From positions 1,472 through 65,471 of the forward strand of contig JAKSBQ010000357.1 in assembly GCA_022361075.1 (NCBI GenBank): 64,000 nt of DNA, given 5' to 3'. The notes beneath the pieces were generated by a model that saw only the letters and a list, made by a program, of their open reading frames with translations, was not told the DNA's origin and searched no databases. The position numbers and the translations under genes are program-made. Positions 9,323 to 11,798 of the stretch are shown here, one piece after another (the stretch's first letter is position 1; every line of letters starts with the position of its first letter). The DNA comes from Opitutales bacterium (GTDB lineage Bacteria > Verrucomicrobiota > Verrucomicrobiia > Opitutales > JAFGAQ01).

Positions 9323-9399
9323 GTCCCGTTCGTCTAGCCAGGTTAGGACACAGGGTTTTCATCCCTGCAACAGGGGTTCGAATCCCCTACGGGATGCCA
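9323..9399 (+). tRNA. tRNA-Glu (anticodon UUC), CCA encoded
   Basis: Hand fold: GTCCCGT TC GTCT AGCCAGGTTA GGAC A CAGGG TTTTCAT CCCTG CAAC AGGGG TTCGAAT CCCCT ACGGGAT G CCA. The anticodon loop gives UUC. The fold parallels E. coli tRNA-Glu. Position 1:72 is a G:U pair. Confidence 0.9.
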
Positions 9400-9413
9400 T
9401 TTTTTGTACGGAT
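9385..9413 (+). repeat. Direct repeat copy 1 (attL-like): last 15 nt of tRNA-Glu plus 14-nt flank
   Basis: CCCTACGGGATGCCATTTTTTGTACGGAT. It matches 11771-11798 with 21/21 identity, then 7 more identities after a 1-nt indel. Confidence 0.75.
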
Positions 9414-9440
9414 GTAATTACCTCCTCTAATCCAAAATTA

Positions 9441-10025
9441 CTACCATGCTTTTGTTATGTTCTCGGGTAGACCTACTCTCATGAAATATCTAGCGAATGC
9501 CTGAGAAAGATGCTCTCTGTAAGGGGGAAGCAAACGTATTCTTGTGTTTTTGTCTGCGTTTACGAAAGATTCTAATGTCCTTTTGGGAACGGTATAAACC
9601 TCGTGAAAGTCAACCACACGATGCTCCATTTCAGGAACCGAATCCTTATATGGATTTAGAAGGCTCAAATTCCAATTGAAACCGTTTTTAAGTTCTTCGC
9701 AGTATCTTCTCCAAGCCTTCTCTGTCAAATTTTGACCCTTTTCAACCTGAGATTTCAATACTTGTTCCTTAACAGAAGAGAGTGAATAATGAGGACATAG
9801 CAAAACATTTTTGACCTTATTGTGTTCTAGATCACAAGCTTGCGTCATTACTATGACATCGGCCAATACTTTCCGGAGGTCAGACTCGAATTCCCTGTTA
9901 TTGTCGTCCCATTTAACTGGTGTTATCTCGTCGTCACTCCAAGAGACAATTGGACACGAAAAAATGATATCTCCTTGGCTTATCGGAGCAGAGGAATCGG
10001 TTTTCTCATACCATGGGAGACTCAT
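9441..10025 (-). CDS. Islet gene 4: hypothetical 194-aa Cys/His protein (TQACDLEH motif)
   Basis: ATG at 10025 overlaps the upstream stop as ATGA. Motifs: SQGDIIFSCPIV near the N-terminus, VIVMTQACDLEHNKVKNVLLCPHYS mid-protein. No family recognised. Confidence 0.7.
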   Translation of the reverse strand: MSLPWYEKTDSSAPISQGDIIFSCPIVSWSDDEITPVKWDDNNREFESDLRKVLADVIVMTQACDLEHNKVKNVLLCPHYSLSSVKEQVLKSQVEKGQNLTEKAWRRYCEELKNGFNWNLSLLNPYKDSVPEMEHRVVDFHEVYTVPKRTLESFVNADKNTRIRLLPPYREHLSQAFARYFMRVGLPENITKAW

Positions 10026-10516
10026 TCTTCATCAAAGTATCGATCATCGAAAATGATTGAAGGTTTTTGTTTAGGAAGCGAGTTAAGATCAATTCTTAAT
10101 CGGTCTTCTCTGTAAACAGTTTTTTTTCCACCAAGAGCATAGATACCTTTAAAGGAATTATCCTTTTCTTCGTCAGGATTGGTGAGTTTAGGAAGTTCTG
10201 CATCCAAAGCAAATGGATGCTCATTTTGACTATTATAATCAGAGACATATGCGAGGACTATTGGAATAAGTTTTGAATAGGTGGACACTGAACTATTCTG
10301 TTCCCCACTTATTGCCCAAGAGGAGGTAACCCAGTTTAACTCGTTGGATTCAGATAATGATCTATCAGGCTCATCTGTTCTTATCTTCAACTTTCTTGAA
10401 GGGTACATTTGAACAATGTCAGTATCATCCTCCGTGTAATCAAATAAAGCACTTCCAGAAGTTGGAATATCTTCTTCAAATTCGGAATCGATTAATTGCA
10501 GGGCTAAGTTCGTCAT
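10022..10516 (-). CDS. Islet gene 3: hypothetical strongly acidic protein (~164 aa)
   Basis: The ORF track starts at a TTG (10537). The ATG at 10516 (MTNLALQ...) lies 2 nt after the upstream TAG and is preferred. D/E-rich, for example DSEFEEDIPTSGSALFDYTEDDTD, and ends ...FDDRYFDEE. No family recognised. Confidence 0.65.
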   Translation of the reverse strand: MTNLALQLIDSEFEEDIPTSGSALFDYTEDDTDIVQMYPSRKLKIRTDEPDRSLSESNELNWVTSSWAISGEQNSSVSTYSKLIPIVLAYVSDYNSQNEHPFALDAELPKLTNPDEEKDNSFKGIYALGGKKTVYREDRLRIDLNSLPKQKPSIIFDDRYFDEE

Positions 10517-10518
10517 TT

Positions 10519-11343
10519 CTATTCTTTTCTTAACCAAATATCCTTTTGAATTTGATCACAGGTTAAATCAGAGAATCCCTTAACTATCCACTCATGGGCT
10601 TGATTGAACCAGTTTTGTAAAGAAGTAGATTCTAGTTTATTAATAGGAATACCTTTTGCGCCTAGCTCAAAGAGTAGGACCTCTTCGCCATCTCTAGTTC
10701 TTTTCGCCTTTCTGATCAAAGTATTTAAACGCCCAGAATCATTTGGAAAATTGAATGAATCTCTCCACTGAAACACGTCTGGGTGAGGGAGAAATCTACT
10801 AGAGCAGTTGTTCCACGAAAAATCTTTAAACACTTTTCCTACATCTGCAGTTGATTCCCAACCATCACCTTTTGGGATGTGATTAATGTAGGTTAGTTCA
10901 AATTGTGTAGGTTCTAGCTCCCCTAGATTATTATCCGATATAAATTTAGTGAAAGCTTCTAAATGCTCTAAGAAATGTGCAAATACTACACTGAACCTTG
11001 GGTATTCTTCCAATGACGAGTTTTTGCGCCAATTGTATATAAATAAATCTCTCTGAAATTGAATTACTGCATTCCCTTTCGAGTGAACAAACCATACTCT
11101 CGGCAATGGGGGTTTATCATCAACTCTAAACTCGATGTTTTGTTGACCTCCACATGTTTCGATTGGGGTTACTAAATTTGGATGTTCAGAGAACTCATTA
11201 TAATCTGGTTGGAACTTTTGCCAGAGTAGCCCGATATGAGGTGCAAGAAATCCTATGATTTCCTTGAACCGGATACCACAAACAACCTCAATAACCGGAG
11301 GTGATTCGTAGCTTGGGAAATCTGTCAGTGTTTGTTGGTTCAC
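10519..11343 (-). CDS. Islet gene 2: TIGR04255-like uncharacterised protein (274 aa)
   Basis: GTG start at 11343. The N-terminal 'FPSYESPPVIEVVCGIRF' matches my memory of the TIGR04255 opening pattern Y-x-x-x-P-[LI]-x-E-[AV]-x-x-x-[IV]-x-F. The length is also typical. Needs HMM confirmation. Confidence 0.7.
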   Translation of the reverse strand: MNQQTLTDFPSYESPPVIEVVCGIRFKEIIGFLAPHIGLLWQKFQPDYNEFSEHPNLVTPIETCGGQQNIEFRVDDKPPLPRVWFVHSKGNAVIQFQRDLFIYNWRKNSSLEEYPRFSVVFAHFLEHLEAFTKFISDNNLGELEPTQFELTYINHIPKGDGWESTADVGKVFKDFSWNNCSSRFLPHPDVFQWRDSFNFPNDSGRLNTLIRKAKRTRDGEEVLLFELGAKGIPINKLESTSLQNWFNQAHEWIVKGFSDLTCDQIQKDIWLRKE

Positions 11344-11355
11344 TTTTGCAAATAC

Positions 11356-11559
11356 TTAGTCTTGATTAGGAGGAATCAGTTCACCAGATTTGATTAACTC
11401 ACGTAGCTTTTCAGCAAGTAATCTCTCTGCGGTTTCAGTTGGATTTTTCCCATACAAACCATGTCCATTTCTTGCGAGTGATTCCAGACATTTCACTAAG
11501 TAAGGATTAGTAGAAAGTCTTAGTTGCTTGGTGGGCAAATCATTCGCATTTCTTGCCAT
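11356..11559 (-). CDS. Islet gene 1: 67-aa putative ribbon-helix-helix DNA-binding protein
   Basis: The pattern beta-strand (KQLRLST), helix (NPYLVKCLESLA), helix (NPTETAERLLAEKLRELI) fits an RHH/CopG-like fold. It is the first gene of the operon, and a palindrome overlaps its start codon. Confidence 0.6.
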   Translation of the reverse strand: MARNANDLPTKQLRLSTNPYLVKCLESLARNGHGLYGKNPTETAERLLAEKLRELIKSGELIPPNQD

Positions 11560-11597
11560 AATAATGTAATTATTATGTCTTTATTACGGCTTTTCAA
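11558..11597 (-). promoter_or_regulatory. Putative promoter with palindromic operator for the islet operon
   Basis: Minus-strand sense reads TTGAAA (11597-11592), a 17-nt spacer, then AATAAT (11574-11569). The perfect palindrome ATAATAAT-TAC-ATTATTAT (11576-11558) covers the -10 element and runs into the ATG at 11559-11557. This implies a leaderless or very short-leader mRNA. Confidence 0.35.
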
Positions 11598-11770
11598 TGT
11601 AATTCGAAAGTTTTAACGAAAAGTTATACACATCGATAGAATCTCATAATTGATTACAAAATTTGTCTCAAAATCTTGTAATTGAAGTAACAATTCATAT
11701 TCTGTAACTTGTTCATTACCTGAATGTTATCACTTCTGAAAATCATCTTCCCTACGGGATGCCATTTTTT

Positions 11771-11798
11771 TACGGATATGGCGTATGCGCAACCCATT
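11771..11798 (+). repeat. Direct repeat copy 2 (attR-like): orphan tRNA-Glu 3' fragment
   Basis: CCCTACGGGATGCCATTTTTTTACGGAT. The remaining tRNA body is absent upstream of it. Confidence 0.75.

Follow-up and report, generated by a model that had tools for sequence, protein, structure and literature searches.

Results

The stretch of DNA analysed here (the window; 64,000 nt, GenBank assembly GCA_022361075.1, contig JAKSBQ010000357.1, positions 1,472 to 65,471 of the forward strand) contains a YidC, MCG8527972.1, that NCBI lists for a metagenome-assembled genome of the Opitutales (Verrucomicrobiota). With rpmH, rnpA and yidC on its left, an intact tRNA-Glu gene forms the left border of an islet of 2.36 kb (9385-11777), which is delimited by two copies of the tRNA 3' end and filled with four open reading frames (ORFs), c194, c171, c274 and c67. 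These four ORFs lie on the minus strand and are tightly packed in one operon that is transcribed towards tRNA-Glu (Table 1). The two copies of the repeat are designated attL-like and attR-like, by analogy with the attachment sites (att) that flank integrated elements, and the origin and the cargo of the islet are the subject of this study.

Table 1. Positions of the islet, its components and related features in the window
Feature	Positions	Strand	Evidence	Properties
tRNA-Glu(UUC), integration target	9323..9399	+	ARAGORN; Rfam RF00005, 57.6 bits	intact, encoded CCA
Repeat copy 1, attL-like	9385..9413	+	alignment	last 15 nt of tRNA plus 14-nt trailer, CCCTACGGGATGCCATTTTTTGTACGGAT
c194	9441..10025	-	AlphaFold2 (AF2) and Foldseek	194 aa, MazF/Kid/CcdB-like predicted fold, candidate effector/toxin
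c171/c164	10022..10516	-	sequence	acidic (pI 4.4), fast-evolving middle protein, candidate neutraliser/antitoxin-like partner
c274	10519..11343	-	NCBIfam and AF2	TIGR04255 family, two-lobed TBP-like predicted fold, candidate sensor/binding component
c67	11356..11559	-	sequence pattern only	67 aa, basic, first operon gene, putative ribbon-helix-helix-type regulator
AT-rich right end of islet	11560..11749	-	promoter-like site and AATGTAATT/TGTAATT repeats	190 nt, non-coding, ~31% GC
Repeat copy 2, attR-like	11750..11777	+	alignment	CCCTACGGGATGCCATTTTTT-TACGGAT, tRNA body absent upstream
Low-GC tail up to metallophosphoesterase gene (start 12856)	11778..12855		GC profile	GC 0.368
o169, orphan ORF in tail	12061-12507/12570	-	two predicted transmembrane helices and helical C-terminal domain	169 aa, or 148 aa as called in contig L034
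Second trailer-motif occurrence	57475..57489	+	motif search	TTTTATGTACGGATG, directly after tRNA-Arg(ACG) 57398-57474
Third trailer-motif occurrence, degenerate	58787..58800	+	83 nt past methylase stop	TTTTTTGTCCGATG, before panB

Local alignment of the whole tRNA with the rest of the window started exactly at CCCTAC, in the acceptor arm, and neither ARAGORN nor Rfam detected a second tRNA ahead of copy 2, in agreement with the initial annotation, which had described this copy as lacking a tRNA body. The two copies are identical over 21 of 21 positions, followed by an indel of one nucleotide (copy 2 lacks the G of position 9406) and the common heptamer TACGGAT, which is the pattern reported before. 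The repeat search also reproduced the earlier placement of copy 1, but not that of copy 2, which had been put at 11771-11798 and thus 21 nt too high. The att core has the sequence CCCTACGGGATGCC. Allowing up to three mismatches, the 21-mer is found twice in the window, once at each end of the islet, and not at all in 100 shuffled sequences. The initial annotation had named a dispersed genomic repeat as a possible objection. Within the window, this objection holds for one half of the repeat, in that the 15-nt trailer half recurs at a tRNA-Arg gene, but not for the 15 nt that are specific for tRNA-Glu (CCCTACGGGATGCCA), which the window contains only at either end of the islet; since the tRNA-Glu-specific part is limited to these ends, the objection does not apply to the full repeat. 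Alignment revealed no third copy, even a degenerate one, between 11778 and 13200.

Contigs of the same species from other assemblies allowed a comparison of the repeat between strains. Copy 1 is identical in the strains represented by contigs L001 and L002, and carries one extra C after CCA in the sister strain L012. In L012, copy 2 reads CCCTACGaGATGCCATTTTTTGTACGGAa, with the G retained and two substitutions. Because the G is retained there, the ancestral repeat was a perfect 29-mer with the sequence of copy 1 (29/29), and from this ancestral state copy 2 has drifted independently in each strain.

The islet interior between the two copies (9414-11749) has a GC content of 0.374, compared to 0.464 for the whole window. 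In this respect, the earlier description of a foreign-looking block between the copies stands (37.4% versus 46.4% GC), but the low GC content overruns copy 2 up to approximately position 12855, so that the attribute 'bounded' is only half true. The right boundary is set by the repeat and by the divergence between strains, not by composition. The genes of the operon are separated by 12 nt (c67-c274) and 2 nt (c274-c171), the stop codon of c171 and the start codon of c194 overlap by 4 nt, and just 27 nt lie between attL and the stop codon of c194. The non-coding right end of the islet contains a promoter-like site on the minus strand, with a -35 hexamer TTGAAA starting at 11597 and a -10 hexamer AATAAT ending at 11569 (10/12 matches). 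This site is straddled by two 9-mers, AATGTAATT, at 11563-11571 and 11596-11604, 33 nt apart, and the heptamer TGTAATT occurs again at 11677-11683 and, on the left junction, at 9413-9419. These repeats are all on the plus strand, and four of their 14 copies in the window sit at the inner ends of the islet, where they could serve as operators for c67 or as arm-type recombinase sites.

Searches of Pfam, NCBIfam, PADLOC and PHROGs did not assign any of the four islet ORFs to an integrase, excisionase or transposase family. The neighbours of the islet and 29 further window ORFs that were scanned did not include a recombinase either and proved to be housekeeping genes or to lack a family match, which bears out the initial statement that neither an integrase nor an excisionase gene is present inside or beside the block. 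No pseudogenes or remnants of mobility genes were seen in the islet, for which both a clean deletion of such genes and an element that never had an integrase are possible. A tblastn search of the window with an integrase and an excisionase-like protein encoded next to a related gene in other genomes (L017 and L018, described below) gave no match. The 21-mer of the att site was absent from 2.9 million viral contigs of IMG/VR, and the islet DNA had no blastn match in phage and plasmid collections; with c274 and c194 as tblastn queries against plasmids and phages, one distant match on a mycobacterial plasmid was obtained and otherwise none. A transposon origin was rejected, as inverted repeats could not be seen at the termini of the islet and the duplication of 29 nt looks too long for a target-site duplication.

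The protein encoded by the last gene of the operon, c194, is a member of a large family with 4165 homologs at approximately 50% identity, none of which carries a Pfam domain. The family alignment contains 38 invariant columns, including Q62, C64, D65, K70 and a block from P167 to R183. The AF2 model of c194 has a predicted local distance difference test (pLDDT) score of 89, and the top matches of this model in a Foldseek search of the PDB were nearly all toxins of the MazF, Kid, CcdB and CptN types, with probabilities of up to 1.0 and target-normalised TM scores of 0.6-0.68. At the sequence level, c194 matched phrog_4575 (E = 6.7e-7). The similarity of the predicted fold supports, with moderate strength, an SH3-like barrel as in MazF and CcdB. 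The preceding gene, c171, was called as a protein of 164 aa in L001 and L012 and had two matches among 1.84 billion representatives. At its C-terminus it has a conserved block, LPxWKPxIxID...EE, in common with the middle proteins, of equal size, that related gene sets encode in other genomes. The acidic character, the start overlap with c194 and the fast evolution of c171 are suggestive of a function as antitoxin of c194.

The protein c274 is listed at NCBI as MCG8527977.1, TIGR04255 family protein, and matched NCBIfam TIGR04255 with E = 6.7e-17 and 62.1 bits (cut-off 30) over residues 12-266, covering positions 2-248 of the 252 profile positions. Its AF2 model (pLDDT 91) consists of two beta-alpha-beta4-alpha repeats. 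Foldseek retrieved a weak match to the TBP core in the PDB and clearer matches to viral TBP/TFIID-like proteins in BFVD (best E = 3.6e-6), in line with a predicted two-lobed, TBP-like helix-grip fold, which does not reveal the function. The nearest non-self homolog of c274 is 53% identical, and homologs are scattered across Syntrophobacteraceae, Phycisphaerae, Burkholderiales, cyanobacteria and KSB1. For c67, no family or PDB match was obtained; the protein is identical in four contigs of the same species, and the segment KQLRLST, which resembles a short beta-strand, together with two helices suggests a ribbon-helix-helix regulator.

Sets of c274-, c171- and c194-like genes recur as a trio in unrelated bacteria, with conserved sizes of about 273-279, 163-180 and 193-205 aa, respectively, and in these other genomes c67 does not accompany it. 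In L013-L016, the trio lies between hsdM-hsdS and hsdR of a type I restriction-modification (R-M) system; in L022 its neighbours are an R-M enzyme of type ISP, an HNH gene, ParE/ribbon-helix-helix and HicB, and in L023 it stands alone among housekeeping genes. Two further loci (L017, 8001-12078; L018, 82-4377) combine a TIGR04255 gene with other partners, namely proteins of 235 and 144 aa and a small SNase-domain protein, and their neighbour element contains genes for a tyrosine integrase, an HTH_17 excisionase-like protein, a DnaB-like helicase and a MerR protein. Relatives of c194 were also detected on IMG/VR contigs. In L024 (UViG_2908336153_000004, 7033-8594), at one end of a prophage, a c194-like protein with 39% identity is encoded by the last of three genes, after those for a DUF6941 protein and a protein of 174 aa; the endolysin gene of the prophage (Amidase_2 and PG_binding_1) lies some 1.4 kb upstream of the set. 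This set suggests a modular family in which the effector is conserved and its partners are swappable. The gene contexts of the trio appear to be the neighbourhood signature of defence or addiction modules.

A search for an empty site was anchored on YidC and covered 185,579 species genomes and then the JGI metagenomes. The nearest other species have YidC proteins with about 60-65% identity, and relatives from the scan of species genomes did not exceed 62%. The closest of these species genomes are L004 (YidC 62% and dnaN 90% identical) and L003. Both keep the gene order dnaN-spoU-yebC-yidC-rnpA-rpmH-tRNA-Glu, with different genes beyond the tRNA, and because synteny is lost at this point they are unusable as empty sites. 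The scan of the JGI metagenomes yielded YidC relatives of 41-42% identity only, and a YidC homolog search with cluster look-ups added one more strain (L021) and a C-terminal YidC fragment. The same-species contigs L001, L002, L012, L034, L035 and L036, which derive from several independent metagenomes, are all occupied. The 108-kb contig of L021 (Logan SRR20820735), from a strain with 97.8% identity, breaks off at window position 9373 in the T-arm of tRNA-Glu. The T-arm is common to relatives such as L004 and therefore a likely assembly break point for this contig. L001 and L002 both stop inside c274 near 10600. The ends of these three contigs are assembly breaks and not polymorphisms.

All strain sequences are metagenome contigs, so that chimeric assembly is a possible confounder of the following comparisons. 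Relative to the sister strain L012 (Logan SRR20820736, 98.0% DNA identity), the window shows 1.42% differences in the left flank, 0.56% in the islet interior (13 in 2336 nt), 10.7% in copy 2, 4.95% in the next 283 nt, 3.2% in the phosphoesterase gene that follows the tail, and 2.1% in the subsequent ORF (14393-16294), here putatively called GGT. The difference between the islet and both flanks was significant (Fisher p = 1.4e-10). Of 710 islet codons, 5 differed synonymously from those of L012; the corresponding figures were 39 of 527 for the phosphoesterase gene, 15 of 454 for GGT and 4 of 118 for rnpA. Over three strains of the species, synonymous divergence is 5-10 times lower in the islet than in its flanks. 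This contrast in synonymous codons means that the low divergence of the islet does not result from constraint at the protein level. A comparison with L001 and L002 gave 14 differences in approximately 1200 nt of the left flank and 0-2 in approximately 1190 nt of the islet, and in L034, which comes from the sample of L001, there was no difference from 10663 to 12234, through copy 2, followed by eight in the next 730 nt. Since divergence is lower inside, the common ancestor of the islet among the strains is much younger than that of the surrounding chromosome, and the islet appears to have recently spread or swept within the species. In L012, divergence steps up at copy 2, as separate site-specific insertions would predict. 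The stretch without differences in L034 extends 460 nt past attR, which would favour spread by homologous recombination.

To the right of copy 2, the low-GC tail contains the orphan ORF o169, for which no family match was found in Pfam, NCBIfam, PADLOC or PHROGs, and it is followed by the calcineurin-like metallophosphoesterase and GGT genes. Nowhere in the locus do the strains diverge more than in the non-coding parts of this tail (4.6-5%). The tail (11778-12855) could belong to the native flank or be the remains of an older island that decayed within a tandem array. The minimum of the cumulative GC skew of the window lies at approximately 10-12 kb, where the gene orientation switches from minus (dnaN, yebC, yidC, rnpA and rpmH) to plus, and the AT-rich gap upstream of dnaN (4500-4638) contains two DnaA boxes with one mismatch each. 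The islet thus appears to be situated within a few kb of the replication origin. The origin itself is unlikely to be the source of the AT-rich tail, as DnaA boxes with one mismatch occur once in the promoter region of the islet and not at all in the tail. Elsewhere in the window, we noted an IrrE/ImmA-type Peptidase_M78 protein (36551-37108, 185 aa) and a DUF2161 putative PD-(D/E)XK phosphodiesterase (53586-54437, 283 aa), both encoded among housekeeping genes.

Within an edit distance of 2, the trailer motif is present at three sites of the window, all on the plus strand, with a mean of 0.4 in shuffled sequences. Both tRNA genes of the window share the trailer consensus TTTT(T/A)TGTACGGATG. 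The motif may be a trailer that tRNA genes of this genome carry natively, or else an arm conserved within a single family of elements that target tRNAs. The ORF after tRNA-Arg was considered as an integrase candidate and rejected, because it is a lone N6/N4 DNA methylase gene (PF01555, E = 1.2e-20) with a likely ATG near 57561 and a stop codon at 58704. The block 57398-58800 may represent a second integrase-less islet; its GC content is normal (0.48), and its distal motif is not preceded by a copy of the tRNA-Arg 3' end.

Discussion

We consider it probable, at roughly 0.7, that the islet is an integrase-less remnant resembling the cis-mobilizable elements (CIMEs), which arose by site-specific integration of the tyrosine-integrase type at tRNA-Glu, carries a candidate toxin-antitoxin or defence operon and has recently spread. 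In such an event, a tRNA-Glu 3' end with its trailer on the incoming element (attP) would have recombined with the chromosomal tRNA-Glu (attB), by which an intact tRNA would have been regenerated at the left junction (attL) and the native 3' end displaced 2.36 kb downstream (attR). The predicted junction before insertion, attB, would consist of the tRNA-Glu body and CCCTACGGGATGCCATTTTTTGTACGGATATGGCGTATGCG, and the attP junction of an excised circle is expected to read ...TGAAAATCATCTT, the 29-mer and GTAATTACCTCC. The present state, in which the att sites are kept and genes for integration and transfer are absent, would correspond to a CIME. The trio might act as a module that protects the host and at the same time stabilises the islet, and spread within the species would likely have proceeded by homologous recombination through the flanks, possibly with the help of an integrase acting in trans. 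The initial annotation had already attributed the repeat to an att duplication from site-specific integration into a tRNA 3' end. This view gains from the ancestral 29/29 repeat that starts inside the tRNA, the foreign interior, the sporadic distribution of the cargo and the younger coalescence of the islet, and it loses from the composition of the right flank and the recurrence of the trailer half at tRNA-Arg.

Several observations count against this interpretation. The low GC content extends 1.1 kb past copy 2, so that the right boundary is not apparent from composition. The repeat's 15-nt trailer half is also found 3' of tRNA-Arg, and part of the presumed att site may thus be a motif common to tRNA flanks or an arm specific to one family instead of a duplicated unique flank. 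No empty site was found in any of the relatives searched, and we infer integration from the anatomy of the locus and did not observe it. Copy 2 has drifted in both strains, and the element may no longer be competent for recombination. With respect to the cargo, the best Foldseek match of c194 had an E-value of 2.6e-3 and none reached E <= 0.001; membership of c194 in the PemK, MazF or CcdB families was not indicated by Pfam or NCBIfam, and phmmer and profile searches against the PDB returned nothing relevant. PADLOC-DB v2 has no model for the four proteins, the sole match being to DrmA at chance level (E = 0.017). Our literature search retrieved no paper mentioning TIGR04255, and no toxicity or defence phenotype is known for the cassette.

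Alternatively, the islet could be an active mini-element that never encoded an integrase, is mobilised in trans by the integrase of a larger element, located elsewhere in the genome or population and sharing the tRNA-Glu att core, and entered each strain separately. The extreme compactness of the islet, with 27 nt between attL and the end of c194 and a right end of 190 nt free of integrase remnants, would suit such an element, and so would the rise of divergence in L012 precisely at copy 2 (from 0.56% in the interior to 10.7% in the copy itself and 5% just beyond), the TGTAATT clusters at both inner ends as possible arm-type sites, and the second small block at tRNA-Arg that is bounded by the trailer motif. 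We nevertheless regard this scenario as unlikely, since neither a cognate integrase-bearing element nor an attP was found in the 2.9 million viral contigs or the phage and plasmid collections, attR is decaying in both strains, and the zero-divergence tract of L034 reaches 460 bp past attR, which homologous recombination explains and site-specific integration does not. Still harder to credit is a more far-reaching version, in which a lineage-wide family of integrase-less mini-elements would share a conserved att arm, TTTTTTGTACGGATG, joined to the 3' ends of different tRNAs (that of tRNA-Glu here, and that of tRNA-Arg with the lone DNA methylase at 57475-58800), depend on an integrase in trans and carry one defence module each, with the trio as an undescribed, widespread tripartite anti-phage or toxin-antitoxin system.

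Another possibility, which is compatible with a CIME-like origin of the islet and which we hold to be minor, though less remote than mobilisation in trans, is a tandem array in which copy 2 is a hybrid att site between the islet and an older, decayed island. The islet would then have accreted at the tRNA-proximal att site, and the older island would comprise the tail (11778-12855) with o169, its distal att site having been eroded. The tail resembles the islet in GC content (0.368 and 0.374, respectively) and contains an orphan membrane-protein ORF without family match, accretion at tRNA sites with partial tRNAs as separators is documented (PMC5704250; bioRxiv 10.1101/2020.12.28.424599), and an arm shared within a family would explain both the 14 duplicated nucleotides beyond the tRNA and their recurrence at tRNA-Arg. 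On the other hand, not even a degenerate third att copy is present between 11778 and 13200, between strains, the non-coding sequence of the tail shows a divergence like that of neutral native DNA, and o169 could be a lineage-specific native gene. If no integration had taken place at all, copy 2 would have originated by local duplication or gene conversion of a native, dispersed motif composed of a tRNA end and its trailer, and the low-GC genes would be specific for the lineage. The presence of the trailer motif after both tRNA genes of the window and its degenerate copy 1.3 kb downstream of tRNA-Arg are in keeping with this idea. However, the 15 nt specific for tRNA-Glu are confined in the window to the islet ends, the interior is foreign in composition and in phylogeny, its coalescence is sharply unlike that of the flanks, and the cassette is found in mobile or defence contexts in other phyla, all of which make an origin without integration very improbable.

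Integrase-less elements with preserved att sites are well known from the CIMEs related to ICESt1 and ICESt3 of Streptococcus thermophilus. The islet described here shares with them the retention of attL and attR together with the absence of integration and transfer genes among its ORFs. CIMEs are flanked by attL and attR as direct repeats at the 3' end of the target gene, consist of cargo only and can be moved if an element with the cognate integrase inserts beside them (PMC5704250, PMC6323972); in tandems of CIMEs with integrative and mobilizable elements (IMEs), accretion at tRNA sites leaves partial tRNAs as separators (PMC5704250). The islet differs from the known examples in its size of 2.4 kb, its single operon, the tRNA-Glu target, the uncultured Opitutales host and the drifting attR, and a cognate IME or integrative and conjugative element for its att site is not known. 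The genomic islands of Prochlorococcus that are built by tycheposons similarly contain degenerate, integrase-less material between partial tRNAs, with cargo that often consists of defence or niche genes, and tycheposons proper encode a tyrosine recombinase and often replication genes (bioRxiv 10.1101/2020.12.28.424599). The islet has in common with these islands a partial tRNA copy resulting from integration at a tRNA site, but it lacks recombinase and replication genes, and the resemblance is an analogy for which homology was not shown. With classical tRNA-linked islands of the P4 type, it shares the distal repeat of the tRNA 3' end, a deviant GC content and sporadic cargo; in contrast to these islands, no integrase gene is located next to the tRNA, and the islet is far smaller than is typical. 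The islet itself is therefore of a textbook kind, and the mildly to moderately novel part is the uncharacterised, widespread three-gene cassette with a predicted MazF-fold effector and its recent spread.

Tripartite toxin-antitoxin systems are known as the toxin-antitoxin-chaperone type. It is conceivable, although we would put the chances at somewhat less than even, that the operon of the islet represents a tripartite system similar to toxin-antitoxin or abortive-infection systems, in which c194 would be the effector, the fast-evolving c171 its neutraliser, c274 the sensor and c67 a local regulator. The operon resembles MazEF, Kid-Kis and CcdAB in that its last gene encodes a protein with a MazF/CcdB-like predicted fold, a translationally coupled gene for an acidic, rapidly evolving protein precedes it and a small putative DNA-binding protein heads the operon. 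In contrast to the toxins of MazEF and CcdAB, c194 is nearly twice the size of MazF, has helical insertions and possesses its own invariant residues (Q62, C64, D65, K70, E171 and H172), and the additional TIGR04255 component of the operon has no counterpart in classical MazEF. PrrC is an abortive-infection gene that is classically located between hsdS and hsdR, and the trio of L013-L016 occupies the same position; however, neither sequence nor family membership relates it to PrrC or RloC, and the trio in the window is not linked to an R-M system.

For the Verrucomicrobiota, the islet indicates that genomes of this phylum, too, are shaped by integration at tRNA genes and by CIME-like remnants without an integrase, in the present case a few kb from the origin-proximal rpmH-rnpA-yidC genes. 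The effector family comprises thousands of members without a Pfam domain or a PADLOC model, which makes the trio a candidate that can be tested as a new system of the toxin-antitoxin or abortive-infection type. The apparent sweep of the islet through a natural population, faster than the flanking core genes, points to selection on the cargo or to mobility of the cargo.

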